38,616 nt of DNA from Candidatus Hodarchaeota archaeon (GCA_016839785.1 JAEOTQ010000020.1:1-38616); one strand, 5' to 3'; shown: positions 11,541-31,410, counted from the first letter of the stretch. Notes: a model not told the origin generated them from the sequence alone. A program made the numbers and translations.

Positions 11541-11555
11541 CTTTGATAATAGCTC

Positions 11556-12362
11556 CTATTGGGAACCAATTTCCTGAATTACTCCGATCTTTTCTAAGAT
11601 CATTTCACGTTCCATTGGATCTGATACATTTCGTATGGAAAATCTACTTTTAAAGCGATTTGTATTAATGTTAGAAGCTGATGCTCCAGCATGAAACATC
11701 AAATGTTGAGAAATTGAATCTTTTAATTCTATAAGGAAAATCCGTTTAAGAAGTGTATTCACAAGAATGAGAACTGATAGTGCTCCAAGATCTGTTTGAA
11801 GGTTAATTTCTCTTAAATCTCCTTCAGTATTGACCGTAAAAAACTCAAGGCCCCCTTTCTCGTGAATATAAGATTGATCACTGTCAACTGGCACTGGGAC
11901 ATGTGGATCAGGTGATTCACAAATTTGCTTAATTCGGCTTAGAATTTTTTGCATTTTTTCTGGATCAGAGAGGTCTTTTTCGTCTTTAATATTCTTTGTT
12001 TCTTCCTGTAGTGCCCGTTCTATTGCAGGATGAAACTGAAAAACCGTCTTGCGATTTTCTGATTCAAAGAGAAGCCAAATCGTTGATTCTCGTCCATGTT
12101 GATCAATGCGAATATCTGTTGTCTCTGTTGGCGACACAGTAAAGGACATGGCAAGTGCCTCTATATTCGGGTTGTTTGGAATAGGAAGTGATCCGTGTAG
12201 ACGATAATGTTGTCTTTCGGCAAGTGTTCCTGCTCCCATAAAGAGGATGGTCATACCAATAACACTGAGATTTTCAGCTGTGTCCTCTGGAATGGGAGAT
12301 AGATTTAATAGAGGGTAAGGACCCCTGTCGCCCATAGTCGTAACAATTAGTCCAGAAAACAC
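11556..12362 (-). CDS. uDENN/longin-like N-terminal domain plus probable gelsolin-like C-terminal domain
   Basis: N-terminal hydrophobic strand then DRGPYPLL (longin GP turn). C-terminal L-x3-SVLILVN-x4-RIFL...S...MF.A...AS.I resembles a gelsolin repeat. GTG start with GAGGT RBS. Confidence 0.55.
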   Translation of the reverse strand: MFSGLIVTTMGDRGPYPLLNLSPIPEDTAENLSVIGMTILFMGAGTLAERQHYRLHGSLPIPNNPNIEALAMSFTVSPTETTDIRIDQHGRESTIWLLFESENRKTVFQFHPAIERALQEETKNIKDEKDLSDPEKMQKILSRIKQICESPDPHVPVPVDSDQSYIHEKGGLEFFTVNTEGDLREINLQTDLGALSVLILVNTLLKRIFLIELKDSISQHLMFHAGASASNINTNRFKSRFSIRNVSDPMEREMILEKIGVIQEIGSQ

Positions 12363-12392
12363 GGTTTATACCTCTTATCTGATAACTTTGTT

Positions 12393-13337
12393 TCATTTTA
12401 GTATTTCAAAAATCTCTGTTGTAAGATCGAGACAACTTTCTTCTATTCGAGGATATGGTTCCGCATCATACTTAAAAACTGATTCCCTTCCAACCAAGAT
12501 AATTTTATTCTCAGCATTAATCCTTTTTGTTATCATAACGAAATCTTCGATCCGAATAATGTCTGCTTGATATTTGGGGCCTACATCAAAGACGTTAAAT
12601 TGTGCTAACATCCGAATAATTTGTGGGCCCACTTTTGTTTCCCATCCCTCACTTTTTCCGACTGCAATTAAAATATCTTGGTTGTATCCTATTAGATAAG
12701 CACCGGAGAAGCCCCAATCTTCCATTTTTCCCTTCAAAATTCTTTTGATTTTCTTCAACTGCTTATCATTAACCTTTTTTACGGTTGAATCTTTGTTATT
12801 CTCAAGAGTCTTACTAAAGTCGGCTGCTTTATTTACTATCTGAGTGAAAGCCATATTCGTCATTCGCTGTTCATCTGGACCTTTCAATGAGACAGTATAA
12901 GACGTAATATCTTTAGGAATAAGCTGTTGGAGATGTTTCTCGACATTTTTCCGAATTTTATTTCTTTCTAATTCGTTTGGAATTAGATGGCCTCTATTAA
13001 CTATCAGTATCACTTGAAAATCTTTGTTTACTTCACTTATATCAAAAAAAATTTCTTTAAAATCGTTTGCCAGGTCGTCCATTACTTGATATGAAATATC
13101 ATGGACGTAAATCAGAGTATTGATTTTCAAATATAGTTTTTCTCTCAAAGCGGGTAATATCTTTTCGAAATATGACTCTTCGTTCCCTTTGAGAGATTTA
13201 TTAAGCCAATCATAGTAAATGAGATTCTTACGAATCCTCAGTCCTGACTCCGCACGTCCCAATTTTAGTAGCTGGTTAAACAGAAGATCTTTTCCAGAGT
13301 GCGATAACCCAGCTACTACGATTAGGTTTTGTTGCAA
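12393..13337 (-). CDS. Degenerate (pseudo-)GTPase with C-terminal roadblock-like domain
   Basis: GLSHSGKD (GK[ST] lost), no DxxG, NRGH at the G4 position; C-terminal GFSGAYLIGYNQDILIA roadblock-like strand pattern; TTG start with GAGGT RBS. Confidence 0.6.
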   Translation of the reverse strand: MQQNLIVVAGLSHSGKDLLFNQLLKLGRAESGLRIRKNLIYYDWLNKSLKGNEESYFEKILPALREKLYLKINTLIYVHDISYQVMDDLANDFKEIFFDISEVNKDFQVILIVNRGHLIPNELERNKIRKNVEKHLQQLIPKDITSYTVSLKGPDEQRMTNMAFTQIVNKAADFSKTLENNKDSTVKKVNDKQLKKIKRILKGKMEDWGFSGAYLIGYNQDILIAVGKSEGWETKVGPQIIRMLAQFNVFDVGPKYQADIIRIEDFVMITKRINAENKIILVGRESVFKYDAEPYPRIEESCLDLTTEIFEILK

Positions 13338-13347
13338 AGTGGTACCT

Positions 13348-14352
13348 CTATATAGGTGTTTTTAGCATGTTTTCTAGTTGAGATGTAAGTAAACGAATGG
13401 TTTCTTCAATTTCTATTAATTTCCTTGTTTCCAACATAGATTTTATATCGGAGGAAACTAACAGAATTAGATACTGAGGAGGAACAGAAGCTCTGAATAA
13501 CATAATGTCTCCAATTTTCACTAATTCGGATTTTGAACTGGGAATTAGCCATAAATCACTTGACTTATCAAGAATGGTAATCAATTGTTTGATTTCATTG
13601 ATATCTGTCTCAGAGGCACTAATAATAAAATCTGGTTCCACTGTAGATAATAAAAGGACTTCATCCAGACGATTCATAAATTTTAACGCATGCAGTACTT
13701 GTTGAATAGGGCGCATTCGTAATCGTCTCTGAATGGCCTCCAGGTCTTCTTCTTTTTCGACTACAGTTGCTTCTGGAATGATTTCACTTGCTTCAGCCGT
13801 AATACGCTTAAAAGCTTCGTGAATTGAATTATCATAAATTGAGGTTTGAAGAAATGTTATATTTTTTGTCACAACCGAAGATTGATACATCTCCATTAGA
13901 AATTCCATTCTTTCTGCTCTTTGGGTTAAATCAGGCATTAAATCCGTTTTATGCAATAAAATGTATACCGCTGGTTGAACGTCTGACATCTCTTCCAACC
14001 GATTGGTACCTTCAACGAACGCTTTTAGTGATGCAGGAAATTTATCAGGGGTTGAAATATCACAAATATAAACCAGAACTGCGACATTACTGAAAATGAA
14101 GGAACTCATACTGCTTAGGAATCGTTTCAAAAAAACTTCCTGTCCTCCAAGATCCATAACGGTAATAGGTTCATCAGCCACTTGCTCTACTTGACGTTCA
14201 TAATTCAACGTTGCAGCATAATCAGCAGTTTCTTCCGGTAATTTACCTCCGAAGACAACATCACGGATAGAGGTTTTTCCTGCTTGAGAAAGGCCTAAAA
14301 GTATAATTTTTCGGGTACTTTGGGTCTTTAATTGCTTGAGATAGTGACTCAT
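13348..14352 (-). CDS. Rag/Gtr-like small GTPase with C-terminal roadblock/longin-like domain
   Basis: GLSQAGKTS, YAATLNYE, DLGGQ, HKTD, TSIYD (G4/G5 as in RagC/Gtr2). Confidence 0.88.
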   Translation of the reverse strand: MSHYLKQLKTQSTRKIILLGLSQAGKTSIRDVVFGGKLPEETADYAATLNYERQVEQVADEPITVMDLGGQEVFLKRFLSSMSSFIFSNVAVLVYICDISTPDKFPASLKAFVEGTNRLEEMSDVQPAVYILLHKTDLMPDLTQRAERMEFLMEMYQSSVVTKNITFLQTSIYDNSIHEAFKRITAEASEIIPEATVVEKEEDLEAIQRRLRMRPIQQVLHALKFMNRLDEVLLLSTVEPDFIISASETDINEIKQLITILDKSSDLWLIPSSKSELVKIGDIMLFRASVPPQYLILLVSSDIKSMLETRKLIEIEETIRLLTSQLENMLKTPI

Positions 14353-17749: not shown

Positions 17750-18661
17750 ATGAGAAGTATGAAAATTTCACTAGTCGGTCTTAGCGGTTGTGGAAAAACA
17801 TCAATCTATTCAACAACTTTTGGAGGAATGACTCCTTTAGAAGTCAAAGATCTTGGGCCTACGGTAATGTATGAGGTCAAAAGCCATAATTATCTTGGCA
17901 TTCAAGTTTCATTATGGGATTTTGGGGGCCAAGAAAAATATCGTCAAAGTTATCTGGAAACTCCAAAGTTACTGGCAAATACGTCAATTTTGGTATTTGT
18001 CCTTGATCTTCACCACCCTGAGAATTTTAAATTGGCCAACGAATACTTTGAAAATGTTTATTCAGCAATTAAAGAACAGGGAGGAGATCCAAGAGTAAAA
18101 ATATTTTATCACAAATATGATACAGAGGACTATGCGGAAGTGGCTCTTGAAGAGAGTCTCAATAAGGCTAAACAACTTCCTTTCGTTGTGAAATTTACTC
18201 CACGTGAATTTTTAACTTCGGTTTATAGACAAGAGGAACTTAGCGATTTTATAAAACAAATTTTAATCGCTGATTTTGAGGAATTGAAGAAAAGTGTTGA
18301 AGGTGCTCAGGAATTCTTATCAAACTTAAAATCCAAGATTATAATAACCGATGTTAATGGAAACGTAATTACGCATAATATCGAAGGATTTGCTACTGGA
18401 ATTCAACTGCGTGAGGATTTACGTGAGTATATTTTCGCATGTAATGTTCTACGGGAGAATTTCTTGACATCAGAGTCCGCTTCTTTTATAGCCAGCTCTG
18501 AAGTAAAGCAGTTGAAAGTCCATATCTATAATTATGTGTTAACAGTTCTAATCATGATGGATGAACATGAATCAGCTGATCCACCAGAGAAAATTAATGA
18601 ATTATTGAAAGAGATGGAAATATTCTCAGAATTGCTGGTCGAGATGAGTAGTGAGGAATAA
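17750..18661 (+). CDS. Rag/Gtr-like small GTPase with C-terminal roadblock/longin-like domain
   Basis: GLSGCGKTS, LGPTV, WDFGGQ, HKYD, TSVY; tail IIITDVNGNVI. RBS spacing suggests the start may be ATG 17759. Confidence 0.85.
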   Translation: MRSMKISLVGLSGCGKTSIYSTTFGGMTPLEVKDLGPTVMYEVKSHNYLGIQVSLWDFGGQEKYRQSYLETPKLLANTSILVFVLDLHHPENFKLANEYFENVYSAIKEQGGDPRVKIFYHKYDTEDYAEVALEESLNKAKQLPFVVKFTPREFLTSVYRQEELSDFIKQILIADFEELKKSVEGAQEFLSNLKSKIIITDVNGNVITHNIEGFATGIQLREDLREYIFACNVLRENFLTSESASFIASSEVKQLKVHIYNYVLTVLIMMDEHESADPPEKINELLKEMEIFSELLVEMSSEE

Positions 18662-18876: not shown

Positions 18877-19374
18877 GTGGTTGCAGCAGAAGCTATGGAT
18901 TCGACAATTCATGAGATATTGAACTCAAGGGAGAAGGAAAGAAAACATCTGATTCCTATTTTACAGGATGTCCAAAAAGAATATGGATATTTATCTAAGG
19001 AAAATATGATACGAATCAGCAAATATCTTGAAATATCACCAAATGAAGTTTATGGAGTCGCATCCTTTTATCAGCAATTTAAATTCATTAAACCTGGAAA
19101 GCATATAATTTCGGTGTGTTTAGGGACGGCTTGTTTTGTCAAAGGTGGAAATGTTCTTGCAGAAACCGTAAGAACAAAATTGGGTATCGAACCAGGTGAA
19201 ACTACTGAAGATGGGTTATTTAGTTTTGAACGTGTTGCGTGTCTTGGATGTTGCGCATTATCTCCTGTTGTTCAGATAGATAACGAAATCTATGGTCAGG
19301 TGAAACCTTCAAAATTACTCCGCCTTATTAGTCGGATAATTAAGGAAGATCAACCAAAGGAGGAACAAAAATGA
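18877..19374 (+). CDS. nuoE: NuoE/HydC-like [2Fe-2S] subunit
   Basis: LIPILQDVQKEYGYL, VYGVASFY, C-x4-C (CLGTAC) and CLGCC motifs. Confidence 0.92.
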   Translation: MVAAEAMDSTIHEILNSREKERKHLIPILQDVQKEYGYLSKENMIRISKYLEISPNEVYGVASFYQQFKFIKPGKHIISVCLGTACFVKGGNVLAETVRTKLGIEPGETTEDGLFSFERVACLGCCALSPVVQIDNEIYGQVKPSKLLRLISRIIKEDQPKEEQK

Positions 19375-21209
19375 CACAAACCAAATCAGTATCTCCTTAT
19401 TCACAAAAGACTGTTCTAATTTGCAAAGGAACTGGTTGTGTTTCAAGTAAATCAGAAGATATCAGTGAAGAATTCAGGGAACAGCTGAAAAATGTAAATT
19501 TGCTAGAAAAAATAAAGGTAGATTTTACAGGCTGCCATGGATTTTGTGCACAGGGTCCCATTGTCATCATTGAACCAGAAGGTATAATGTATGCTCAGGT
19601 AAAAGTACCTCATGTAGAGAAGATTGTCACTTCACATCTCAAAGATGGGATTCCAGTTGAAGAGCTATTTTTTGTTGATCCTAAGTTAAATAAACGTATT
19701 GGAAAGTATAAAGAGATTGATTTTTACAGTAAACAAACAAGGATGATTTTAGGTAATTGTGGACATATTAATCCAGAAAATATTGATGCTTATATTGAAA
19801 CTGGGGGATATTCTGGACTGAAAAAAGCACTAGAAAAGACACCAAAAGAAATAATTCAAATAATTACAGATTCAGGGCTGAGAGGACGAGGTGGGGCAGG
19901 GTTTTCAACAGGGTTAAAATGGAAATTTTGTCATAATGCTCCTGGTAGTGAGAAGTATATCATCTGTAATGCTGATGAGGGAGATCCTGGAGCGTTTATG
20001 GATCGGTCTTTACTTGAAGCTGACCCACATAGTGTATTGGAAGGGATGATTATTGGGGCTTTTGCTATTGGTGCCTCTCATGGAATAATATATGTTCGTG
20101 CTGAATATCCTCTAGCTATCAAACGTTTTAGTCGTGCTCTTGTGACAGCGAAGGAGCAGGGATTTTTAGGTTCAAATATTCTTGGTTCTGGTTTTTTTCT
20201 TGACATTTCAGTTCATGAAGGAGCGGGAGCGTTTGTATGTGGAGAAGAAACAGCATTAATGTCTTCTATAGAGGGTCATCGTGGAAATCCAAGAACTAGA
20301 CCTCCCTTTCCTGCCACATCAGGACTCTGGGGAAAACCTACGAATATAAACAATGTTAAAACATGGGCTTCAGCAGCCTGGATCTTTAAAAACGGGTGGA
20401 AAAAGTTCCATGAGATTGGTGTAGAGAATGCTACAGGAACAGCCATCTTTTCTTTGACTGGAAAAGTAAAAAATCTGGGTTTGATTGAAGTTCCTATGGG
20501 TACTCCCCTAAAAGATATTGTGTACGAAATTGGTGGAGGAATTTTAGACGATAGAGAATTCAAAGCCGTTCAAACTGGAGGACCTTCTGGAGGATGTCTC
20601 CCACCAAGTCACTTAGATTCACCAGTCGATTATGAGACGATGGCTGCATCAGGGAGTATTATGGGATCAGGAGGAATGATTGTCCTTGATGAAACCAATT
20701 GTATGGTCAAACTTGCTCATTATTTTCTTACATTTACACAGGCTGAATCCTGTGGAAAGTGTATTCCATGCAGAATTGGCACTAGGGCGATGTTATTAAT
20801 TTTAGAGCGAATTATTAAAGGAAAAGGAGAAGATAAGGATCTTATGTTACTGGAGGAACTCGCTTATACCGTTAAGATGGGTTCTTTATGTGCCTTAGGT
20901 CAAACTGCCCCGAATCCAGTATTAACAACTCTTAAGTATTTCCGTAATGAGTATCAGTCTCATATTTTTGAAAAACGTTGTTTAGCCAAAGATTGTCAAG
21001 ACCTGATTAATTATGTCATCGATGAGGATCTGTGCAATGGATGTACAATATGTGCTCGCAATTGTCCTGTCAGTGCGATCACAGGGGAAAAAGGAAAAGT
21101 TCATTTCATTGACACAGCAGTATGTGTCACTTGTGGTATCTGTCATTCAAGCTGTCCAAAAACGGCTATCTTTAAACAAGATAGGCCTCATGAGGTGGTG
21201 TTGGAATGA
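19371..21209 (+). CDS. nuoF: NuoF/HydB-like FMN/NADH subunit, bifurcating type
   Basis: N-terminal thioredoxin-like [2Fe-2S] domain, LRGRGGAGF, NADEGDPGAFMDR, CGEETAL, GGPSGG, ESCGKCIPCR, C-terminal 2x[4Fe-4S]; ATGA overlap with the previous gene. Confidence 0.93.
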   Translation: MTQTKSVSPYSQKTVLICKGTGCVSSKSEDISEEFREQLKNVNLLEKIKVDFTGCHGFCAQGPIVIIEPEGIMYAQVKVPHVEKIVTSHLKDGIPVEELFFVDPKLNKRIGKYKEIDFYSKQTRMILGNCGHINPENIDAYIETGGYSGLKKALEKTPKEIIQIITDSGLRGRGGAGFSTGLKWKFCHNAPGSEKYIICNADEGDPGAFMDRSLLEADPHSVLEGMIIGAFAIGASHGIIYVRAEYPLAIKRFSRALVTAKEQGFLGSNILGSGFFLDISVHEGAGAFVCGEETALMSSIEGHRGNPRTRPPFPATSGLWGKPTNINNVKTWASAAWIFKNGWKKFHEIGVENATGTAIFSLTGKVKNLGLIEVPMGTPLKDIVYEIGGGILDDREFKAVQTGGPSGGCLPPSHLDSPVDYETMAASGSIMGSGGMIVLDETNCMVKLAHYFLTFTQAESCGKCIPCRIGTRAMLLILERIIKGKGEDKDLMLLEELAYTVKMGSLCALGQTAPNPVLTTLKYFRNEYQSHIFEKRCLAKDCQDLINYVIDEDLCNGCTICARNCPVSAITGEKGKVHFIDTAVCVTCGICHSSCPKTAIFKQDRPHEVVLE

Positions 21210-22816
21210 GCAAATGGATGAACATAAATGGGAGGCGTGTCGTATTTGAAGAAGGAGAGACTGTACTAGAAGTTGCCACAAAAGCAGGAATTTACATTCC
21301 CACACTCTGTGCAAGGCCCGATTTACCTTCATTTGGAGCATGTAGATTATGCATTATCGATGTCGAGGGAGCTCGAACATATCCAAATTCCTGCACTTTG
21401 CCTGCTAGAGAGGGAATGGTTGTAAGAACTGCGACACCAGATTTGCAAGCTGTCCGTAGAAATGTTTTTCAGCTAATTCTTGCTGAACACCCTAGTTATT
21501 GCATTATCTGTAAAGAACACGACGAATGTGAAAAAGTACGTCATGGGGAATATAAGGCTGGGAGAGTTATTGGATGTTTTACTTGTAGTAATAAAGAAAT
21601 TTGTGAAATTCGTGAGATTTCAGAATATTTAAGAATCAAAGAAATTCGCTATCCGATGCTTTATAAAAATCTACCGTTGGAACGTGATGATCCTTTTCTT
21701 GTAAGAGACTATAATCTTTGTATTTTATGTGCTCGTTGTATCCGAGCATGTCAGGACGTTCTGGGTTACAGTGCCATTGATTTAACAAAGCGTGGTCATG
21801 ATACTAAAGTTGGGACGATTTCAGAGGTGTCTCACCTAGAAAGTGGGTGTGTATTCTGTGGTCATTGTATTGATGTGTGCCCAACAGGAGCCCTCATTGC
21901 CCGTGGTTCAACTTGGTTTGGAAAACCTGATAAATCTGTTACAACTACTTGCAATCTTTGTTCGCACGGATGTCAAATGGTGATTGATGTAAAATGGGAC
22001 AAAGTAGTAAATGTCCATCCCCCATATGAACTGTCTGCTCGGCGTGAATATTGTGTAAAAGGTCGTTTTTGCATTCCTGCCTTAGTGAATGGTCGAGATC
22101 GTCTTAAATACCCAACTATTAAACGGAAATTGATCAAAGAAGAACAACATCCTGTTTCATGGGATGAAGCAATTTCTTACACAGCTGAGAAGTTAAAATC
22201 CTTTAAACCAGAGGAAATTGGGATTATTATTGCTCCATCGTTAACTGATGAATCTGTGTTTATTTTGTCGAAATTTGCTCAGAAAGTCAGTACTAATTCA
22301 ATCGTATATGATGAGGAAGGAATTATGAGTTTACAATCTCAGGGAGTCAAAGCATATGTTACAACTTTCAATTCGAAAATATTTTCTAAACTTGAAGGTT
22401 TAGAATTCCTCGTACTCCAAGATATATATGAATCGATTACTTCTGAATCTGCGGAAGTCGTTCTTCCTACAACAGTATTTACTGAAGAAGATGGAACAAA
22501 ATCAGGGGAGGAATACATGAGATATTCAATAAATAAAGCAGTTGAACCGCCTGGTGAGGCACTTCCCAGCTGGGCTATCTTCTGTCGCATAGCTCAATCG
22601 ATGGAATTAGAAGGGTTCAGTTATAATTCAATTGAGGAATTGAAAGATGAAATTATGAATTCAGAACCTTTAGATATACCCAAAATCTCAAAACAAAACC
22701 TTGAATATATGGGAATTCCTCTAACTGAAAAAGTTGAGGAATTTAGACTTTACATTACTACTAAACGGGCTATCAATCAATCAGAAGGAAAAGGTGAAGT
22801 AGATGTCCAAATTTGA
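21206..22816 (+). CDS. NuoG/FdhA-like polyferredoxin subunit with truncated molybdopterin-binding domain
   Basis: [2Fe-2S] (GACRLC), H-x3-C-x2-C-x5-C, CILCARC..AC, CVFCGHCIDVCP, CNLCSHGC...CVKG, remnant LQDIY..ITSESAEVVLP; no H-cluster motifs. Confidence 0.85.
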   Translation: MSKWMNINGRRVVFEEGETVLEVATKAGIYIPTLCARPDLPSFGACRLCIIDVEGARTYPNSCTLPAREGMVVRTATPDLQAVRRNVFQLILAEHPSYCIICKEHDECEKVRHGEYKAGRVIGCFTCSNKEICEIREISEYLRIKEIRYPMLYKNLPLERDDPFLVRDYNLCILCARCIRACQDVLGYSAIDLTKRGHDTKVGTISEVSHLESGCVFCGHCIDVCPTGALIARGSTWFGKPDKSVTTTCNLCSHGCQMVIDVKWDKVVNVHPPYELSARREYCVKGRFCIPALVNGRDRLKYPTIKRKLIKEEQHPVSWDEAISYTAEKLKSFKPEEIGIIIAPSLTDESVFILSKFAQKVSTNSIVYDEEGIMSLQSQGVKAYVTTFNSKIFSKLEGLEFLVLQDIYESITSESAEVVLPTTVFTEEDGTKSGEEYMRYSINKAVEPPGEALPSWAIFCRIAQSMELEGFSYNSIEELKDEIMNSEPLDIPKISKQNLEYMGIPLTEKVEEFRLYITTKRAINQSEGKGEVDVQI

Positions 22817-23693
22817 GATCCTAAAGAAAGAAGAATTTGTACCCAATTTTTATAAGCTAGATATCGCTGTACCTGGTATAGCTAAGAAAGCTAAAGCAGG
22901 TCAATTTATTTTAGTGATGGTGGATAAGCAATCAGAGAAGATTCCATTAACTATATTAGATTGGGATGAAGAAAAGGGTACAATTTCTTTTATTGTCCAA
23001 GAATTAGGTTTATCTACTTCAAAGATGGCATTTATGGAGGAAGGAGATTCATTCTATAGTATTGTTGGTCCATTGGGAGAACCAGCCTACTTGGAAAACT
23101 TTGGGACCGTTGTATTAGGAGGAGGATGTTACGGTGTTGGAGCAGTCTTTCCAATAGCAAAAGGCCTTAAGGCACTTGGAAACTATGTTATAACGATAAT
23201 TGAGGCCAAAAATGAAAATCTCCTGTATTATGAAGAGGAATATAAGACTGTAAGTGATGAAGTCATTCTCGTGACTACTGATGGATCTAAAGGGGAACGT
23301 GGGCATATTTACGACGTTCTCGACAATATGATTGAAGTGCAGAAGCGTAAAATTGATCATATTAAAGTCATTGGCTGTAATGTCATGATGAGTAAGGTGT
23401 CAAAGCTTACAAAAGAGAAGGGAGCTATCCCAACCTATGCAACTGTTACTACAATTATGGTTGATGGAACAGGTATGTGTGGAAGCTGTCGATTATCCTA
23501 TGACGGGAAAACAAAATTTGCTTGTGTAGATGGACCAGAATTTGATGCTCACAAAATAGATTGGGATGAATTAATACACGTTCGGAATACCTCCTATATT
23601 ACAGAAGAAACATTGGGTTTACAGAATTTTTCTCCTGAATGTCGTTCTCTAGCTAAATATCAGGAAAGAACAAAGGAAGAGGAAGCATCATGA
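22803..23693 (+). CDS. nfnA: NfnA/SudB (NADH-dependent reduced ferredoxin:NADP oxidoreductase small subunit)
   Basis: AGQF..., EKIPLTI.D, GPLGEP, GGGCYG, MVDGTGMCGSCR...FACVDGPEFD. Confidence 0.92.
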   Translation: MSKFEILKKEEFVPNFYKLDIAVPGIAKKAKAGQFILVMVDKQSEKIPLTILDWDEEKGTISFIVQELGLSTSKMAFMEEGDSFYSIVGPLGEPAYLENFGTVVLGGGCYGVGAVFPIAKGLKALGNYVITIIEAKNENLLYYEEEYKTVSDEVILVTTDGSKGERGHIYDVLDNMIEVQKRKIDHIKVIGCNVMMSKVSKLTKEKGAIPTYATVTTIMVDGTGMCGSCRLSYDGKTKFACVDGPEFDAHKIDWDELIHVRNTSYITEETLGLQNFSPECRSLAKYQERTKEEEAS

Positions 23694-25423
23694 AATCTAA
23701 AGAACGAATGCAGATTCCTTTTACAGATATGCCTACCCAACCTCCCCAGGTTCGTGCTAAGAATTTCCGTGAAGTGCCCTATGGTTATTCTGAAGAAATG
23801 GCTATCCAGGAAGCAAATCGATGTCTGAACTGTAAGAAACCTAAATGTGTCGAGGGGTGCCCTGTTCGTGTTCCCATCCCCGAATTCATCTCTTTGGTAC
23901 AAGAAGGTAAGTTTTTAGAAGCAGCATGGAAAATCAAAGAGCGAAACGTTCTTCCTGCTGTTTGTGGGCGCGTGTGTCCTCAGGAGACTCAATGTGAAGC
24001 GCAATGCATAAGAGGTAAAAAAGGGAGATCTGTCGGTATTGGTAATCTCGAGAGGTTTGTTGCAGATTATGAAAGACTTAGTGGGCATATTCCTGAACCA
24101 ATACGAGTAAGCAAAAATGGAAAAAAGGTCGCAATTGTCGGGAGTGGCCCGTCAGGTTTAACGACTGCTGGAGATTTGATTTTACAGGGATATGAAGTTA
24201 CAGTATACGAGGCATTTCACCTTGGAGGAGGGGTTCTTGTTTATGGTATTCCTGAATTCAGGTTACCAAAATCTGTAGTCCAGTTTGAAATTCAGAATTT
24301 AGAGAATGCTGGGGTTAAGTTTGTCTATGATTCAGTCATTGGGAGAATTCGAGGGATAGATGAATTGTTTACAGAAGATGGATATGATGCAGTTTATGTT
24401 GGGGTTGGAGCTGGATTACCTGTCTTTATGAATATTCCTGGTGAAAATTTACAAGGGGTCTATTCAGCGAATGAGTATTTGACGCGTTCAAACTTGATGA
24501 AAGCGTATCTTTATCCCGAATATAATACACCATTACTTACTGGAAAGAATGTAGTTGTAGTAGGTGGAGGAAATGTTGCTATGGATTCAGCCCGTACTGC
24601 CTTACGATTAGATGCTGATAATGTATATATCGTCTACCGTCGATCTAGAGAACAAATGCCTGCTAGGTTAGAAGAAGTTCATCATGCAGAGGAAGAAGGA
24701 ATCCAATTTCGACTACTTTCTAATCCAGTAGAGATCATGGGTGATGAAAAAGGACGAATTGAATCTATCAGATGTCAACGATATGAACTTGGAGAACCTG
24801 ATAAGTCAGGTCGGGCACGCCCCGTCCCGATAGAGGGAGATTATTTTGTGCTCAATTCGGATCTGATTATCATAGCAATAGGCAATAAAGCTAATCCTCT
24901 TATAACGATGACCACACCCGATTTAGAGGTAAATAAATGGGGAAATATTGTAACTGACGAACTAGGAAGAACAAGTAAGCCATTTGTATACGCTGGTGGG
25001 GATATAGTAACTGGAGCTGCAACAGTGATTTCTGCAATGGGCGCTGGACGACGTGCAGCAATGGCCATTCATGAAGATCTTTTTCCAACAACTGAAGTAA
25101 AGACAGAGGGCTTTACTATTCCTAAAGAGACATTAGAAATAAAGCATGCAGCAATTTATCCAAAAACGGTCTATTTAAGACTTAATTTAATTAATTCTTC
25201 AGAGAAAGAGCTTGACCAAGTCAAAATTCGTATTTCTCATGTTCATGATTTCTTTGAAACAACTATGTTTGAAACAACTATCCCTCGCTGGTCGCCTGGC
25301 GAAGAACACGAATTTGATTGTCCTCGTATAGATAAAAACGAGAAAGAATATCTGATTACGATTAATGACCTACATGGTAAAATTATGTCAAAAATTATTG
25401 TTGCTGAGGAAGTAAAAAGATAA
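23690..25423 (+). CDS. nfnB: NfnB/SudA large subunit with an extra ~110-aa C-terminal extension
   Basis: CLNCKKPKCVEGCP, CGRVCPQETQC, GSGPSG, GIPEFRLPK, GGGNVAMD, YRR, GGDIVTGAATV; the core ends near 25085, then a beta-rich extension follows. Confidence 0.92.
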   Translation: MKSKERMQIPFTDMPTQPPQVRAKNFREVPYGYSEEMAIQEANRCLNCKKPKCVEGCPVRVPIPEFISLVQEGKFLEAAWKIKERNVLPAVCGRVCPQETQCEAQCIRGKKGRSVGIGNLERFVADYERLSGHIPEPIRVSKNGKKVAIVGSGPSGLTTAGDLILQGYEVTVYEAFHLGGGVLVYGIPEFRLPKSVVQFEIQNLENAGVKFVYDSVIGRIRGIDELFTEDGYDAVYVGVGAGLPVFMNIPGENLQGVYSANEYLTRSNLMKAYLYPEYNTPLLTGKNVVVVGGGNVAMDSARTALRLDADNVYIVYRRSREQMPARLEEVHHAEEEGIQFRLLSNPVEIMGDEKGRIESIRCQRYELGEPDKSGRARPVPIEGDYFVLNSDLIIIAIGNKANPLITMTTPDLEVNKWGNIVTDELGRTSKPFVYAGGDIVTGAATVISAMGAGRRAAMAIHEDLFPTTEVKTEGFTIPKETLEIKHAAIYPKTVYLRLNLINSSEKELDQVKIRISHVHDFFETTMFETTIPRWSPGEEHEFDCPRIDKNEKEYLITINDLHGKIMSKIIVAEEVKR

Positions 25424-25432
25424 ATACCAAGA

Positions 25433-25831
25433 TTATCCGAGTTCAAGAGTATTAAATGCAGAAATAATGTCATGAGTAGTGATGATTCCTACTAATTCAT
25501 GAGAGTCTGAATCCTTGACTGGGATCCGCTTAATCTTTTTTCGATACATCGTGATTAATGCATGTTCAATGGTATCCTCTGGAGCAATAGTAATGAGATC
25601 TCTTGTTGCAATTTCTTTTGCCTGTACTTCACACAAGTCTCTGCAATCGGTAATTACTTTTCGTACAATATCTCGTTCTGTTATTATTCCAAACACAGTG
25701 GAATCTTCATAAACCAGTATGGAACCAATGTTTTTCTCTATCATCATTTTTGAAGCATATATCACACTCTTATCCCCGCTAATAGTAATTAAATCCCTTG
25801 TCATCAAGTCTTTAACTCTTGTTAAGTTCAA
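25433..25831 (-). CDS. Stand-alone CBS-pair (Bateman module) protein
   Basis: VKDLMTRDLITI, GIITERDI, IKRIPV, VGIITTHDI. Confidence 0.92.
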   Translation of the reverse strand: MNLTRVKDLMTRDLITISGDKSVIYASKMMIEKNIGSILVYEDSTVFGIITERDIVRKVITDCRDLCEVQAKEIATRDLITIAPEDTIEHALITMYRKKIKRIPVKDSDSHELVGIITTHDIISAFNTLELG

Positions 25832-25848
25832 ATTCTATTCCCTTAGCC

Positions 25849-26892
25849 TTAAATTCTCTTAATTTTCAAAGTATCTTCTTCATCTTCTATTTTAAGTAAA
25901 TAACGGATCCCATCTTCAATTTCAGGTTTGAAATCAATTCCTTTAACCTCACCTTGATCCCATTTCTCAAGTTTTTTGAGGGCCTTATCCTTTCCAAAGA
26001 ATCCACGAGATTCATAGATTCGAATTGTCACATTCTTTATAGTGAAGGGAGAGGTATTTTTTAATGAAATTGCTACTAAATCTTCCCCTCTATTTATTGA
26101 TAAGATTTTGATTGTTTTCTGCCTTCCTCGGATATCTTCCGTTTTAGATTGGCCAATAACTTTGCTATCTTTACTTCTTGGAATCGCGAATCTTAATTTC
26201 TTCTTTGGAACAGATTTTGAAAGAAATTTCTTATCAACTTCAACTATCTTTTCTCGTTTTCTGTCTTTTCGAAATAACGGTTCAAGCTTACTAATTGGTA
26301 TGTTAGGAGTTAATGACTGGCAAATTTCCGTTAGCTCTTCTTCAACTAACCTTGCATTTTTTAGGGAAAAATCTTCACTGAGCTTGTTTGCAGATGATTC
26401 AAGCTGGAATCTAACGAGATAGCAGAGATGCTTGCTGAAATCTTCTTTAATTTTAGAATAAAATTCATGGAGTATTTCTTGAGCAACGAAAGAGACTTCT
26501 GAAGGAGCTTTTACTATAAGGATGAACCTTTCCTTCTGCCACTTCATTGCCTTCATACCTGACCGTTTTTTCAAGCGTTGTGTATCGCATTCAAAGAGAG
26601 TGGCTGAATATACTACTCCACTAAGTTCAAGATCCATTGTCGAGAATTTATCAGACTTAAGAAACTGATCTTGATGCCACCATGCCGGATGAATAGTTAA
26701 AATGGCCCTTTCATTTTCATTTTCCATAAGAGCCTTTGGGTAGGTAAAAAGTAACGAATGACCTTGTAATTCATCGTAAAAATAAATGAAAAATCCAAAA
26801 GAACGATCTTCTACTTGAAGATGAATCGAATCAATAGGATTTGATTTCCCATTCGGCAAAGAAATGTACTCCAAATAATCGTGAAGATACAC
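25849..26892 (-). CDS. uDENN/longin-like protein with C-terminal beta domain shared with NfnB
   Basis: GFFIYFYDELQGHSLLFTYP resembles the uDENN/longin hhxxFD-x3-G-x2-h-x3-P start; basic linker; C-terminal FF-x11-W-x3-E domain. Confidence 0.6.
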   Translation of the reverse strand: MYLHDYLEYISLPNGKSNPIDSIHLQVEDRSFGFFIYFYDELQGHSLLFTYPKALMENENERAILTIHPAWWHQDQFLKSDKFSTMDLELSGVVYSATLFECDTQRLKKRSGMKAMKWQKERFILIVKAPSEVSFVAQEILHEFYSKIKEDFSKHLCYLVRFQLESSANKLSEDFSLKNARLVEEELTEICQSLTPNIPISKLEPLFRKDRKREKIVEVDKKFLSKSVPKKKLRFAIPRSKDSKVIGQSKTEDIRGRQKTIKILSINRGEDLVAISLKNTSPFTIKNVTIRIYESRGFFGKDKALKKLEKWDQGEVKGIDFKPEIEDGIRYLLKIEDEEDTLKIKRI

Positions 26893-26966
26893 AAATACAA
26901 AATGATTTACATTTCCTTTAAAAATTTAGGATTTAACATTTTCTTGTGGCTATTTTATAACTATGT

Positions 26967-27917
26967 TTATGCAGGTTCAATATCCAATGATTTAATTGCC
27001 ACAGTTTGATTCTTACTACTGATTTTTAGCATGTAGCTTTCCAATTTTGAAGATCGAGGGAATTCAAGAATTAAATCTTCCTTAGTAGGCCATTCCTCAA
27101 GATTTTGCTCCCACAAATTCTCACTGAAAAACTCCGTCTTCTTGGAAACTTTTATCTTAACTTCTTCTAACGTCTCTGTTTGATTAACTAAAATGACTAA
27201 AACTTCATCGGCACTCTCTTCAGTGCTTAATATCCGCATTGTAACTGATTCTTTAAAAAAACTCTTTTCAGGAGACTTTTTATCTAGAGAGTGCAAAGAG
27301 GATTTTGAGATTGATAGATTTTGAGAAGAAAAGAATATTCTGGTTTCAGTTAATTTGTTTCCAAGATTTTCCCATAGCGTTTGGAGGGATTTACCAATTT
27401 TAGCTGCCTTATCCGAATATTGCAAATACTTCCGTCTTTTAGTAGGATTTAACTTCAATATATGCCGTTTGTACAATACTTCGATATCTTTCCAATGATT
27501 AGTTTGCAGATCGTCTCGGAATTGTTCCAGTGCTTCTGGATGTATGAAATCCCCATCCTTCCATATTTTTAGCACGATCCCAAAAATCGGCTTTTCTACG
27601 GTACCTATAACGTCTTGTGATTGAGATTCTTGTAATTGAAGCGCTGTATAAATAAACTCTGAAATCTTCAGGTCTATACGCATAGGAATGTGTTCAACCT
27701 TCCATATGTAATGGGTTTTCAATACATTATGTTCTTCAGAGTTTTTTCGCAGTTTTGTTGGAATAGAATAAAGGATTTGTAGTCCATAGGTTGTATCGAA
27801 CGAACATAAGTAGAATCCGATCAAGCTCGAAGAAAATGAATGTGGCTTGGTTGATTTTTCCAGCTCCGTAGAATTCGTACTAAAAGGATCTATATTCATT
27901 GTATTTGCTGCCATCAA
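26967..27917 (-). CDS. uDENN/longin-like protein with C-terminal beta domain shared with NfnB (paralog of 25849-26892)
   Basis: GFYLCSFDTTYGLQILYSIP; collinear with its neighbour over both domains. Confidence 0.6.
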   Translation of the reverse strand: MMAANTMNIDPFSTNSTELEKSTKPHSFSSSLIGFYLCSFDTTYGLQILYSIPTKLRKNSEEHNVLKTHYIWKVEHIPMRIDLKISEFIYTALQLQESQSQDVIGTVEKPIFGIVLKIWKDGDFIHPEALEQFRDDLQTNHWKDIEVLYKRHILKLNPTKRRKYLQYSDKAAKIGKSLQTLWENLGNKLTETRIFFSSQNLSISKSSLHSLDKKSPEKSFFKESVTMRILSTEESADEVLVILVNQTETLEEVKIKVSKKTEFFSENLWEQNLEEWPTKEDLILEFPRSSKLESYMLKISSKNQTVAIKSLDIEPA

Positions 27918-28125: not shown

Positions 28126-29973
28126 TTGGAGCAGAATCTGTTGGAATCAAAGATATGGGATGTCATATGTGTGGGAGGTGGCCCTGCAGGCCTTTCTTGT
28201 GCAATTCGAGCGGCAGAACTAGGACGAAGTGTTCTTGTTCTTGAAGCTAGATCAGGATCAGCCACAGCAGGTAGCATGATGGTAGATGGGTACCCAGGAT
28301 TTTTCAGTATTACTCGCCAAGAATTACTGGATAAAATGGCTCGTCAAGCAAAATATCATGCAACGATCAGATATGCTGAGCGTGTCAGTCGATTAGAGCT
28401 TGAGGGAGAAATCAAACGAGTATATACCACTGTTGAGAGAGGAGAATTTTTCACAGAAGAGATCACATACCAAGGCAAAACAGTACTTATCGCTACAGGG
28501 TTACATCCAAAAAAAATAAATGTTCCTGGGGAACGAAAATTCCATTCTAAAGGAATTTATTATAATAATCCTCCTGAAGGGGAATATGAAGAGAAAAATG
28601 TTGCCATAATCGGTCACAACTCATGGGCTGTACGTAATGCTCTTCATTATGATTCGATTGGGGCACATGTATGCTTGATTACCGCTAGAGATGCTTTTGA
28701 TGCCCATCCTGCATTGTTAAGGCGACTTAATGAAAGCTTTGTCAATATCCGTTTTGGTCATGAAGTTATTTCATTTGAAGGAGATTTAAAAGTTCAAAAA
28801 GTGAATTTAAAGAAACATACAGGTGAGAAAGTTACTATCTCAACTGAGATTATTGTAATCCTCAGTAGTAAAATTAAGAACAGAGAATTATTCATGAATG
28901 CTGGCTTGGCCATTACACCTGAAGGGAAAATTATCATAAATTCAGCAAACCAAGATACAAATTTACAGGGAGTATTTGCCGCTGGCAGTGCCATAAGAGG
29001 AGACTCGATTGTCGGAATTGACGCTGCAGAAGGTCAAACGGCCGCAATGCAAATTTCTCGTTATCTCACCAATCTTGAAAAAGAAGAAACCAAAACGATA
29101 CCTGAAAAATTGGAAGCTTCCTTGGCCCAAAGATTTGTTGAAGGGAGAAGTATCATTCTTGAGAAAGTTGATTTATCCCCAGAAATAATCAAATGGGTGG
29201 TTCATGCACCACGGATAGCTGAAAAATGTCAACCTGGCCAATTTGTTATTTTACGTGTCACCGATCATGGTGAAAGAATTCCTTTGACAATTGCTGATTT
29301 CGATCGAGGAGAAGGAACTATTACACTTATCTTTCAGAAGATAGGAAAAAGTACAAAATTGATGGGAAGACTAAATACTGGAGATCACATACTGAACCTG
29401 CTAGGACCCCTTGGTGAACCTGTGAAGATTGAAAAATGGGGAACAGTAGCAGTATTAGGAGGAGGATGTGGTGTTGCCCCTGTATTACCAAAAACAAAAG
29501 CAATGAGAGATATAGGAAATTATATAGTAAGCATCATCTCAGCTCGAACAGGATCCCTTCTAATCTGTCAAGATGAGATGAATGCAGCAAGTGATGAACT
29601 ACATATTGCTACAGATGACGGCACATTAGGTCATCATGGATTTGGTTTAGATTTATTACAAAAATTCATAAAAGAAGGGAGGAAATTTGATCATGTCGTA
29701 GCTGTTGGCCCGATCCCTATGATGAGAGCAGTCGTAAATTTCACAAAAAAGCACAACATTCCGACCATAGTGTCATTAGCTCCACTTATGGTAGATGGAA
29801 CTGGTATGTGTGGGGCCTGTCGGGTGACGGTGGGTGGAAGAGTGAAGTTTGCCTGCGTAGATGGGCCAAATTTTGATGGCTTAAAGGTTGATTTTGATGA
29901 ATTGACTCTTCGATCACAAGCATACCGCTATGAGGAACGGGTTGCTGTTGAAAAGATGTCTAGAACTAGTTAA
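28126..29973 (+). CDS. Fusion of a thioredoxin-reductase-like FAD domain (no CxxC) and NfnA/SudB
   Basis: N-terminal GGGPAG, DGYPG, LIATG, TNLQGVFAAG (TrxB fold); C-terminal PGQFVILR, ERIPLTIAD, GGGCG, MVDGTGMCGACR, FACVDGP. Confidence 0.85.
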   Translation: MEQNLLESKIWDVICVGGGPAGLSCAIRAAELGRSVLVLEARSGSATAGSMMVDGYPGFFSITRQELLDKMARQAKYHATIRYAERVSRLELEGEIKRVYTTVERGEFFTEEITYQGKTVLIATGLHPKKINVPGERKFHSKGIYYNNPPEGEYEEKNVAIIGHNSWAVRNALHYDSIGAHVCLITARDAFDAHPALLRRLNESFVNIRFGHEVISFEGDLKVQKVNLKKHTGEKVTISTEIIVILSSKIKNRELFMNAGLAITPEGKIIINSANQDTNLQGVFAAGSAIRGDSIVGIDAAEGQTAAMQISRYLTNLEKEETKTIPEKLEASLAQRFVEGRSIILEKVDLSPEIIKWVVHAPRIAEKCQPGQFVILRVTDHGERIPLTIADFDRGEGTITLIFQKIGKSTKLMGRLNTGDHILNLLGPLGEPVKIEKWGTVAVLGGGCGVAPVLPKTKAMRDIGNYIVSIISARTGSLLICQDEMNAASDELHIATDDGTLGHHGFGLDLLQKFIKEGRKFDHVVAVGPIPMMRAVVNFTKKHNIPTIVSLAPLMVDGTGMCGACRVTVGGRVKFACVDGPNFDGLKVDFDELTLRSQAYRYEERVAVEKMSRTS

Positions 29974-29976
29974 GGA

Positions 29977-31410
29977 GTGTTGAGCATCATGAGTGAAGAA
30001 AGGGAACAACGTAAACAAAAGCTCAAGAAAAAACGTACTCATATGAGTGTTCAAGAATCTCGCGAACGGATCCGCAATTTCAGCGAAGTGGCATTGGGAT
30101 ATACGGATGAAGAGGCACTGGAGGAAGCCTCTCGTTGTTTGAAATGCAAAAAGCCCCGATGTGTAAAGGGGTGCCCAGTCAATGTCCAAATCCCAGAGTT
30201 CATTCAGAAAGTACTGGAAAATGACATCAATGGAGCGAAAGACATTATTTTATGCACAAATAGCCTTCCAGCAATAACTGGACGTGTCTGTCCACAAGAA
30301 AATCAATGTCAAGAATTCTGCATTCATCCGAATGCTATTTCTATTGGCAATCTTGAAAGATATGTTGCAGATCAGGGACAGAGTGGCGAACGAAATATTT
30401 CTAGCAGTTTAGGAACTAAAGTGGCAATTGTCGGAGCTGGACCATCAGGATTAACTTGTGCTGCGGAATTAGCAACTCTAGGTCACAAAGTAAACGTCTA
30501 TGAAGCATTACATGAATATGGTGGTGTATTAACATACGGAATTCCAGAGTTCCGTATGCCCAAATCCATTGTAAACGACGAAATCGAATCTGTTAGAGCA
30601 TTAGGTGTGGAATTTGAAAAAGATACTCTTATTGGGAGAACTATAACTGTAAATGAGCTTTTAGAAAAACATAATTTCAACGCCGTTTATGTGGCTTCGG
30701 GTGCTGGTACTCCGAATTTTCTAGGTATTCCTGGTGAAAATTTAAATGGGGTTTTTTCTGCAAATGAATTTCTCACAAGAGTGAATTTATTGAAAGGTTA
30801 CCAATTCCCTGATTATGATACTCCTGTGACTATTGGTGAAAAAGTGGCTGTTATTGGCGCAGGTAATGTTGCCATGGACTGTGCTAGAACTTCATTGAGA
30901 TTAGGAGCACGAGAAGTCGATATCATTTATCGAAGATCCGAAGGTGAAATTCCTGCTCGATTAGAGGAAATTATTCATGCTAAAGAAGAGGGAGTAGTAA
31001 TTGGGGAATTAATTTCACCGTTGGAAATAATTGGCGATAATAAGGGGAATGTAGTCGGCCTTAAATGTATGAAAATGGATCTAGGAGAAAAAGATGCCTC
31101 AGGTCGACGTCGACCTATTCCAATTCCTGAAACAGAATTCATTTTTCCTGTTGATACGGTCATAATTGCTATTGGTCAACGTCCGAATCAATTGATTGCT
31201 CTTACAACTGACGGATTAGAAACTACCAAGTGGGGGACGTTTGTACATAATGAAGAGACGGGTGCTACAACTCGGGAAAGAATTTTTTGTGGTGGTGATG
31301 TAGCAACAGGAGCAGCTACGGTAATACTCGCCATGGAAGCAGGTCGAAAAGCAGCTAAAGCAATTCATGAAATGATCATTGAGAAAGATTTGAATCACAG
31401 TACAAAATAG
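29977..31410 (+). CDS. nfnB: NfnB/SudA large subunit (canonical length)
   Basis: CLKCKKPRCVKGCP, TGRVCPQENQC, GAGPSG, GAGNVAMD, YRR, GGDVATGAATV. Confidence 0.92.
   Translation: MLSIMSEEREQRKQKLKKKRTHMSVQESRERIRNFSEVALGYTDEEALEEASRCLKCKKPRCVKGCPVNVQIPEFIQKVLENDINGAKDIILCTNSLPAITGRVCPQENQCQEFCIHPNAISIGNLERYVADQGQSGERNISSSLGTKVAIVGAGPSGLTCAAELATLGHKVNVYEALHEYGGVLTYGIPEFRMPKSIVNDEIESVRALGVEFEKDTLIGRTITVNELLEKHNFNAVYVASGAGTPNFLGIPGENLNGVFSANEFLTRVNLLKGYQFPDYDTPVTIGEKVAVIGAGNVAMDCARTSLRLGAREVDIIYRRSEGEIPARLEEIIHAKEEGVVIGELISPLEIIGDNKGNVVGLKCMKMDLGEKDASGRRRPIPIPETEFIFPVDTVIIAIGQRPNQLIALTTDGLETTKWGTFVHNEETGATTRERIFCGGDVATGAATVILAMEAGRKAAKAIHEMIIEKDLNHSTK

Follow-up and report, generated by a model that had tools for sequence, protein, structure and literature searches.

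Why would a subunit of a redox enzyme end in the same domain as two proteins of an unrelated type encoded beside it? This question is raised by a locus of Candidatus Hodarchaeota archaeon (GCA_016839785.1, JAEOTQ010000020.1:1-38616), a stretch of 38,616 nucleotides that was analysed over its full length and is termed the window. Within it, an NfnB/GltD-type oxidoreductase subunit (NfnB) possesses a C-terminal extension, and an earlier note, made from the DNA alone, aligned this extension with the C-termini of two adjacent proteins that it labelled uDENN/longin-like. The domain is termed Dom and the two proteins LP347 and LP316 in the following sections. Our analysis reveals that Dom is one homologous domain, under purifying selection on NfnB, and that carriers of Dom recur in several Asgard families beside one orthogroup of Rag-type GTPases. 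The distribution suggests a role in assembly, which is weighed below against the alternatives.

A C-terminal domain on NfnB and two neighbouring proteins

The three carriers in the window and their copies of Dom are located as follows.

23690..25423, plus strand: NfnB/GltD-type subunit, 577 residues, with a core (residues 1 to ~469), a linker and C-terminal Dom; last gene of a five-gene operon
25118..25414, plus strand: Dom copy 1, NfnB residues ~477-575 (hmmsearch envelope; the genome profile match is 25127-25414)
25849..26892, minus strand: LP347, 347 residues, with an N-terminal domain of ~200 residues, a low-complexity linker and C-terminal Dom
25852..26130, minus strand: Dom copy 2, LP347 residues ~255-347
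26967..27917, minus strand: LP316, 316 residues, a paralogue of LP347 without R-x-K-x-R, with C-terminal Dom
26970..27260, minus strand: Dom copy 3, LP316 residues ~220-316

The core of NfnB is conventional. Pfam Fer4_20 and Pyr_redox_2 match it with E=2e-42 and 6.9e-35, respectively, and Pfam coverage stops at residue 453. The protein scores 591.7 bits against NCBIfam TIGR01316 (cut-off 471.75) and is adjoined by an NfnA-like partner gene, both of which place it in the NfnB/GltD type. In these features, including the position of the NfnA-like gene upstream, NfnB resembles the canonical small subunits of NfnAB, SudAB and GltD; it differs from them by the linker and Dom, and by belonging to an operon of five genes that also encodes NuoE-, NuoF- and NuoG-like subunits. 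The second NfnB of the window, NfnB2, ends at NfnB residue ~469 in the alignment, so that residues ~470-577 (~108 residues) are extra, as the earlier note had observed. This extension comprises a linker of ~20 residues and Dom, which spans ~95 residues. The motif spacings quoted in that note (x11, followed by x15, x15 and x14 in the three proteins, with L-x-N-[SQT]) are legible in the translations, and its open reading frame coordinates agree with ours. The start of LP347 may be a TTG codon at 26859, as its relative P0001 has 336 residues at 98% identity.

The likeness among the three segments is well beyond that expected from composition. BLASTP aligns the NfnB extension with LP347 at E=6e-4 and with LP316 at E=6e-7, and LP347 and LP316 are paralogous over their full length (E=4e-9). 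Smith-Waterman comparison yielded z scores of 6.2 for the extension and the LP347 domain, 10.9 for the extension and the LP316 domain, and 13.1 for the two LP domains, and the observed score was reached in 0 of 2000 composition-preserving shuffles for each of the three pairs. Control pairs, in which the extension was set against NfnB2 or the N-terminal parts of the LP proteins, gave z scores of -0.5 to -1.0. The proposal that a single domain is common to the three proteins is thereby upheld. A profile built from the three segments, as had been suggested, finds exactly three copies in the genome of the window (84.5% complete). The domain is indeed unnamed, as no Pfam or NCBIfam family covers it. 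In an alignment of 38 sequences, in which all carrier classes were used, one column is invariant (N29) and F49, W61, E65, Y81 and K95 are conserved in at least 90% of the sequences. The ratio of nonsynonymous to synonymous substitution rates (dN/dS) for Dom of NfnB is 0.076-0.149 in four pairwise comparisons; Dom of NfnB is therefore under purifying selection.

The alternative that the likeness reflects chance or composition, or that the NfnB extension is an assembly chimera, draws on the low pairwise identities (22-32%) and on the richness of the proteins in Lys, Glu and Ile. The shuffles and a dN/dS of ~0.1 stand against it, as does the specificity of the profile, which recovers only the LP, FrhB-like and NfnB classes from 1.84 billion proteins. 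The fusion itself is present in nine other genomes of the genus, ten with that of the window, and in five further protein clusters from JGI, ENA and NCBI sources, all of 577 residues and 60-89% identical. Contigs from two studies bridge the junction: a 988-nucleotide contig of run X1 covers 24562-25549, X1 being possibly the source sample and hence not independent, and a 222-nucleotide contig of X4, a run of another study, covers 25038-25259 across the boundary of core and Dom. Taken together, these data refute a chance likeness or a chimeric NfnB extension, an alternative that we find hardly credible. RNA run X15 covers 24586-24802 only, which hints at transcription of the NfnB core and is uninformative on Dom.

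Dom carriers and the exchanged enzyme slot

A search of 1.84 billion representative proteins by hmmsearch gave 64 matches to Dom at E<=1e-3. BLAST against references assigns 13 of these to the LP347 type, 12 to the LP316 type, 21 to a third, divergent LP clade, 15 to FrhB-like proteins and three to NfnB. The FrhB-like carriers P0057, P0068 and P0089 contain FrhB_FdhB_N and FrhB_FdhB_C together with a 2x[4Fe-4S] domain in Pfam. Their assignment to FrhB/FdhB, and that of the proteins of loci L115 and L120, rests on E values of 1e-37 to 1e-44 for the N-terminal family and 1e-20 to 1e-24 for the C-terminal one. In P0080, whose source is labelled Helarchaeota, LP-Dom is followed by four CBS domains, and open frames of 632-645 residues found in the profile search of Asgard genomes match such LP-Dom-4xCBS fusions. 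The source labels on named LP347 relatives read Hodarchaeales, Heimdallarchaeota or Promethearchaeota, with one Thorarchaeota, which identifies the window as DNA of a Hodarchaeales-like Asgard archaeon. A further, longer search for other architectures gave 25 matches, all NfnB or LP; this search was word-limited, so the absence of further architectures is weak evidence. Dom was found only in some Asgard archaea.

In a Dom tree of 63 sequences each carrier class forms a clade, with SH-like approximate likelihood-ratio test (SH-aLRT) support of 97 for NfnB, 98 for LP316, 99 for LP347, 97 for the arrestin-like carrier X400 described below and 82 for FrhB. NfnB gained Dom once, and the backbone of the tree carries no resolution as to the donor carrier.

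The locus was compared within a set of 22 genomes of the genus, including that of the window (G000); labels in G and L are our working labels for genomes and loci, and those in f denote families. The layout was annotated by BLAST for 11 fetched sister loci besides the window's own. Dom is found in all 21 other genomes of the genus, and the three-sequence profile gave no match in the 19 genomes that represent four further families of the order and class. Exactly three matches per genome are observed in 17 of the 22, four or five in two, and one in three. The other genes of the locus in the window are as follows.

17750..18661, plus strand: RagA_17750, a Rag/Gtr1-type GTPase (Pfam Gtr1_RagA 76.9 bits, cut-off 22)
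18877..19374, plus strand: NuoE-like [2Fe-2S] subunit, gene 1 of the five-gene oxidoreductase operon (Pfam 2Fe-2S_thioredx, E=3.9e-49)
19371..21209, plus strand: NuoF-like subunit binding flavin mononucleotide (FMN) and NADH (Pfam Complex1_51K, NADH_4Fe-4S, Fer4)
21206..22816, plus strand: NuoG-like Fe-S subunit with a partial molybdopterin-oxidoreductase domain (Pfam Fer2_4, Fer4_Nqo3, Molybdop_Fe4S4, Molybdopterin)
22803..23693, plus strand: NfnA-like subunit (Pfam DHODB_Fe-S_bind, E=2.1e-13), overlapping the start of NfnB
25433..25831, minus strand: CBS-pair protein, directly downstream of LP347 and convergent with NfnB (Pfam CBS, E=2.6e-28)
28126..29973, plus strand: thioredoxin-reductase-like (TrxR-like)/NfnA fusion, 615 residues, divergent from LP316
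29977..31410, plus strand: NfnB2, 477 residues, without Dom, following the TrxR-like/NfnA fusion

The order conserved in the genus is Rag-like GTPases, a major facilitator superfamily (MFS) transporter, RagA_17750, a variable slot, the CBS gene, LP347, LP316, the divergent TrxR-like/NfnA2 fusion and NfnB2. The slot is filled in two ways. In G000, G014, G012 and G020 it holds the operon of NuoE-like, NuoF-like, NuoG-like, NfnA and NfnB-Dom genes, and in G016, G010, G008, G003, G011 and G007 it holds a single FrhB-like-Dom gene on the strand of the LP genes. Judged by open-frame length, ten genomes carry NfnB-Dom, 11 carry FrhB-Dom and none carries both; a contig-end fragment in G021, in the FrhB-type orientation, lies outside this count. 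The FrhB-type genomes G010, G008 and G003 possess no NfnB-Dom orthologue, only NfnB2 (53-54% identity) and a distant protein of 846 residues, and no FrhB-like match at E<=1e-60 was found in G000, G014, G002, G012 and G021. In a tree of two flanking genes (nine genomes, 914 columns), which is not a species tree, the NfnB-type G012 nests among the FrhB-type genomes with support of 100/100 and 97/96. The occupant of the slot has therefore changed at least twice, and Dom is present on either occupant. The link to Nfn drawn in the earlier note thus holds for NfnB of this genus and is not specific to Nfn, as the carrier in most lineages is FrhB-like and NfnB is its substitute at the level of the genus.

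The CBS gene adjoins an LP gene in all ten genus loci in which this was compared (nine sister loci and the window) and also in the distant genome G116. Two genomes of the genus, G001 and G017, retain FrhB-Dom alone, at a locus that is without the GTPase, CBS, both LP and NfnA2B2 genes.

Several observations accompany this comparison. The NuoG-like subunit (21206-22816) scores 227.9 bits against NCBIfam NuoG, below the cut-off, and is likewise below the Fdh-alpha and hydrogenase equivalog cut-offs, its molybdopterin-oxidoreductase segments being partial. The TrxR-like/NfnA fusion and NfnB2 form a pair that is transcribed away from LP316 in all sister loci. Three further Rag/Gtr1-like GTPase genes are clustered on the minus strand at 10608-11540, 12393-13337 and 13348-14352, interrupted by an open reading frame of 268 residues (11556-12362) that matches no Pfam or NCBIfam family. 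The order of this four-gene block (10608-14352) is kept in G010, G008, G003, G001 and G017, and the edge of the G011 locus includes its last two genes only. In G007 (L043, C1:288000-301000, and L042, C1:344000-361000), LP347 appears split into an N-terminal piece of 261 residues beside LP316 (~294 kb) and a Dom piece of 150 residues beside CBS and FrhB-Dom (~352 kb), which is either a rearrangement or a misassembly.

The Rag-type GTPase and the LP proteins

Outside the genus, a profile of whole LP plus Dom was matched in 180 of 400 Asgard genomes. The matches are distributed over families f1 (21/21 genomes), f9 (3/3), f13 (5/5), f14 (6/6), f15 (3/3), f16 (2/2), f17 (2/2), f18 (1/1), f20 (131/135) and f21 (4/4), with one genome in f32. 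The same 400 genomes gave no match in f2-f8, which are the other families of the window's class, or in f10-f12, f19 and f22-f30. Five distant genomes were searched with a Dom-only profile, and four of them gave three matches each; the fifth, from f9, has FrhB-Dom only. The open frames of the distant carriers are LP proteins of 343-376 residues, FrhB-like proteins of 498-532 residues, and a further protein, X400, of ~390-406 residues, whose N-terminal ~280 residues are arrestin-like by a weak match to Arrestin_C (E=0.004, below the cut-off). Five genomes (four of the genus and one of f9) gave no match to X400, which is weak evidence, the search being a single-protein query without a positive-control genome. 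The arrangement is compact in G116, where CBS, LP-Dom, a C25 peptidase, FrhB-Dom, the GTPase and X400-Dom genes lie on one strand within ~8 kb.

The GTPase recurs beside the tagged enzyme. Of 30 FrhB-Dom loci compared with flanks of 1.5 kb (families f20, f14, f13, f1 and f32), 26 have a full-length RagA_17750 orthologue next to the enzyme gene, and 13 of the 30 also include an X400-Dom gene. As for the four others, the GTPase lies beyond X400 at the locus edge in L153, and L132 has a fragment with the full gene ~2 kb away; none is present in L138, where a copy occurs on another contig, or in L142, which is cut by a contig end. The G116 orthologue matches Gtr1_RagA at 65.9 bits. By profile (E<=1e-40), 41 of 151 genomes possess the orthogroup, which is spread over five of 27 sampled families, namely f1 (6/7), f13 (5/5), f14 (6/6), f20 (22/25) and f32 (1/1), and it was not found in the 22 other sampled families, including f31 (0/26), f12 (0/19) and f9 (0/3). 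All five families with the orthogroup have LP-Dom; these genomes are related and not independent, and the co-occurrence is given without a statistical test.

Three side observations concern these distant loci. In L117, L119 and L123, from three f20 genomes, a GNAT acetyltransferase gene (159-164 residues) follows LP-Dom. At L117 (G148:C1:62001-74000), which is of the Loki type, genes for HdrB-like, HdrA-like (1041 residues) and MvhD proteins lie directly upstream of LP-Dom, and within the genus, in G008 (L044, C6:388000-399000), HdrA-like (1039 residues), MvhD and HdrC-like genes lie beside an extra LP347 paralogue. L117 and L044 represent a second, independent association of LP genes with enzymes of the flavin-based bifurcation type. 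We also note that eight of the 30 best FrhB-Dom matches each have one in-frame TAA within the matched stretch (f20, e.g. G260, G219, G221, G178, G239, G265, G237 and G262).

Dom could instead serve each carrier alone, through self-oligomerisation, stability or an autoinhibitory lid, and have spread by local duplication or recombination, the locus then being a matter of genomic history. The carriers are indeed neighbours, which favours capture of a 3' end by local recombination; their separate Dom clades point to long co-evolution of each tag with its own carrier, and FrhB-Dom survives without the other carriers. This account does not readily explain why two unrelated enzymes exchanged in one slot should both be tagged, or why the same carriers and the GTPase recur across families whose orthologues share only 40-45% identity. 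Moreover, FrhB-like homologues in f31, f10 and f11 (23 of 60 matching genomes) stop at query residue 334-386, before Dom, and these families are also without an LP match; FrhB-like orthologues outside the LP-bearing families are thus without the tag. We regard a role confined to each carrier as quite improbable.

The identity of the LP proteins bears directly on a link with GTPase regulation. The uDENN/longin-like label given to them earlier is not borne out, as there is no Pfam match, hhalign assigns a probability of 2%, and the resemblance is at the level of motifs only. Pfam searches with 61 members of the LP family found no family matched by more than two of them and none relevant (E<=1); LP316 has no Pfam match and LP347 a sub-threshold one only. 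PF03456 and PF13774 match nothing in the genome of the window. PF11704 (Folliculin) matches three genes there, none of them LP (29.1 bits for C230, above the cut-off, and two weaker), and ten genes in five further genomes, again none of them LP. Alignment of the LP N-terminal domain by hhalign with the genome's own folliculin-like family (23, then 28 sequences, the latter comprising the PF11704-positive protein and 27 relatives) gave a probability of 2.2-2.6% and a score of 21-22, with 17 for a GTPase-alignment control, which is collinear and not significant. The best match of the whole LP alignment among structures of the Protein Data Bank (PDB), ribosomal uS15 at E=0.11, was taken as noise.

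The motif-level resemblance is the following. According to PMC12290439, longins that act as GTPase-activating proteins (GAPs), heimdallarchaeial homologues included, have two hallmarks, namely an arginine finger and, between strands 1 and 2, a GP motif. The N-terminal domain of LP347 possesses FDE-x2-GH and R-x-K-x-R. Across LP proteins the G of the hairpin is invariant, and the next residue is H, L or N instead of P, with FDE-x2-GH present in the LP347 and Loki types. The basic loop R-x-K-x-R-x-G, which precedes a hydrophobic strand, is kept in these same types and lost in LP316. The folliculin-like protein of the genome has FDEEHGP and ARGKNR at positions collinear with the LP motifs. This protein (G000:C230; L046, 351-2520) has 438 residues, is the only Pfam-significant one in the genome and is preceded by an open reading frame of 163 residues; of 21 genus members, 20 have retained it, as have both f2 genomes.

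LP genes became paired in tandem on at least two occasions, in the genus of the window and in g52, also a genus, and in each pair one copy keeps the motifs and the other has lost them. Such pairs may be likened to heterodimers of a catalytic and a non-catalytic partner. Tandem paralogues of which one is degenerate are also the point of likeness with FLCN-FNIP, NPRL2-NPRL3 (GATOR1), C9orf72-SMCR8 and the Asgard FLCN/SMCR8-type proteins, and the LP proteins share with Rag/Arf GAP longin heterodimers their co-occurrence with one Rag/Gtr1-type GTPase orthogroup. This is in contrast to their sequence features: the LP proteins have no longin, uDENN or folliculin Pfam match, carry H, L or N in place of P, and are without a DENN domain, the C-terminus being Dom. 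To our knowledge, no eukaryotic GAP longin shares a domain with a redox enzyme. The earlier link to GTPase regulation gains strong indirect support from the RagA_17750 orthogroup, which accompanies the tagged enzyme in several Asgard families, and the LP proteins are candidate regulators. Prediction of one complex of the GTPase, LP347-Dom and LP316-Dom with NfnB-Dom as the partner gave ipSAE scores of 0.01, 0.48 and 0.01 in successive uncontrolled runs (mark 0.32), which speak neither for nor against binding.

Possible roles of Dom

The alignment of Dom displays the alternating hydrophobic positions typical of beta strands, and the domain is probably beta-rich. The putative Ig-like or appendage-like beta-sandwich of the earlier note draws on this pattern. 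The best match of its profile among solved structures is the C-domain of visual arrestin (6bk9_A, residues 224-278) at E=0.03, which is not significant. Dom is shorter than an arrestin lobe. The carrier X400 with its weak Arrestin_C match is a second point of likeness to arrestin-fold adaptors, likewise below significance, and hhalign detects no similarity of Dom to the arrestin-like N-terminal region of X400 itself (E=0.22).

A beta-sandwich of the C2 or arrestin-lobe kind could bind a ligand, a lipid or a membrane, and so provide common localisation or an allosteric input without protein contacts made by Dom. The residues that do not vary, N, W, E and K, are polar or aromatic and would suit a binding site better than the core of a fold, the marginal arrestin C-domain match agrees with this, CBS domains, which bind adenosyl ligands, are fused or adjacent to carriers, and Dom stands alone on FrhB-like proteins in G001, G017 and f9. 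Nevertheless, no known ligand-binding family matches Dom, Dom is unlike the arrestin-like part of X400, and some three locus-linked carriers per genome are more typical of a dedicated assembly code. Binding of a ligand or membrane as the function of Dom is in our estimate unlikely.

The reading that we prefer, and whose chances we put at about even, is that Dom is a docking module that assembles a complex centred on the Rag-type GTPase, with an interchangeable flavin/Fe-S enzyme, candidate GTPase regulators, and CBS and arrestin-like adaptors. In this genome the tag would mark NfnB of a NuoEFG-like/NfnAB-type flavin/Fe-S oxidoreductase together with LP347 and LP316, which probably act as a pair and with which the CBS protein would be co-transcribed; the client GTPase would be that encoded just upstream of the enzyme operon (17750-18661). 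In other lineages the FrhB-like enzyme and the arrestin-like protein would bear the tag. Dom would unite its carriers either by Dom-Dom association or through one common partner, and the redox enzyme would be either a sensory input or a regulated target of the GTPase switch. A docking module is the simplest mechanism because a domain under selection sits on about three carriers of unrelated type per genome, in company with one GTPase orthogroup, and is kept when the enzyme is swapped, and because enzyme homologues outside these lineages are without the tag and CBS domains are fused or adjacent. The distribution accordingly fits the docking or oligomerisation tag of the earlier note (as a rule three carriers in each genome, all of them at or close to a single locus, and purifying selection); physical binding and any direction of signalling are what we infer.

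A similar logic is known from dockerin-cohesin pairs, encapsulin cargo-loading peptides and microcompartment encapsulation peptides, in which a short terminal module is shared by unrelated co-encoded proteins and the cargo is interchangeable. Dom differs from these tags in being a domain of ~95 residues rather than a peptide, in its presence on regulator-like proteins as well, and in having no sequence relation to them. No shell or scaffold gene was identified with the Dom system.

Several facts weigh against such an assembly. The lone FrhB-Dom in G001, G017 and f9, where no other Dom carrier was found, is the main fact against obligate hetero-association; no GTPase orthologue was found in f9 or, genome-wide, in G001, and for G017, which was outside that search, the absence refers to the locus. 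Dom therefore has, or can have, a role without those partners. In f20 the LP gene usually lies apart from the FrhB-GTPase pair, at a distance of 8-55 kb or, in G188, at another place on the chromosome, and the gene after it encodes a GNAT protein instead of CBS. The gene order of the genus may be plain inheritance, and counts over kin genomes overstate independence. Finally, a role of the LP pair as GAP or guanine nucleotide exchange factor (GEF) is a conjecture, because the LP N-terminal domain is not assignable to the longins.

The co-occurrence of Dom with the Rag GTPase locus suggests a signalling module that couples metabolism to a eukaryote-like GTPase switch. A fuller construction would take Dom as the assembly code of an Asgard-specific Rag-GTPase complex for redox or energy sensing, in which the FrhB-like or NfnB subunit reports the NAD(P)H, ferredoxin or F420 pool, the LP pair is a longin-type GAP/GEF, and the CBS and arrestin-like proteins are adaptors, the whole being a prokaryotic counterpart, possibly a forerunner, of eukaryotic Rag-FLCN/GATOR nutrient sensing. 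We offer this construction tentatively and would sooner doubt than endorse it.

By sequence, Dom falls outside all known families, and the module appears to be without a described counterpart. Should structures reveal Dom as a member of a known beta-sandwich superfamily and the LP domain as a longin, only their combination would be new. The literature that we searched contains no description of Dom, of a link of Nfn or FrhB to Rag GTPases, or of an operon of FrhB, GTPase and arrestin-like genes; the LP family may be listed, for example as NPRL2- or FLCN-like, in the asCOG tables that supplement Liu et al. or in Data S1 of PMC12290439, which lie outside this search. The study of Liu et al. (10.1101/2020.10.19.343400) describes FLCN-like and NPRL2-like longins and a LAMTOR1-Rab-DENN operon, and reports that conserved neighbourhoods are lacking for most eukaryotic-signature genes. 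Tran et al. (2024; PMC10933270) report that the GTPase genes of MK-D1 are generally outside operons with roadblock or longin genes.

Asgard genomes possess many Rag-, Arf- and Rab-like GTPases and many longin and roadblock proteins, and matching a GTPase to its regulator or effector is difficult. Read most cautiously, Dom represents a new domain family that deserves a name and accounts for ~100 unexplained residues on NfnB and FrhB-like proteins. With it, one Rag-type GTPase orthogroup gains a conserved and testable set of partners that is recognisable by Dom and includes a core redox enzyme. If these proteins assemble, a Rag-like switch of Asgard archaea would for the first time have a concrete input or output, and energy metabolism would be tied to a GTPase system related to that of eukaryotic growth control.

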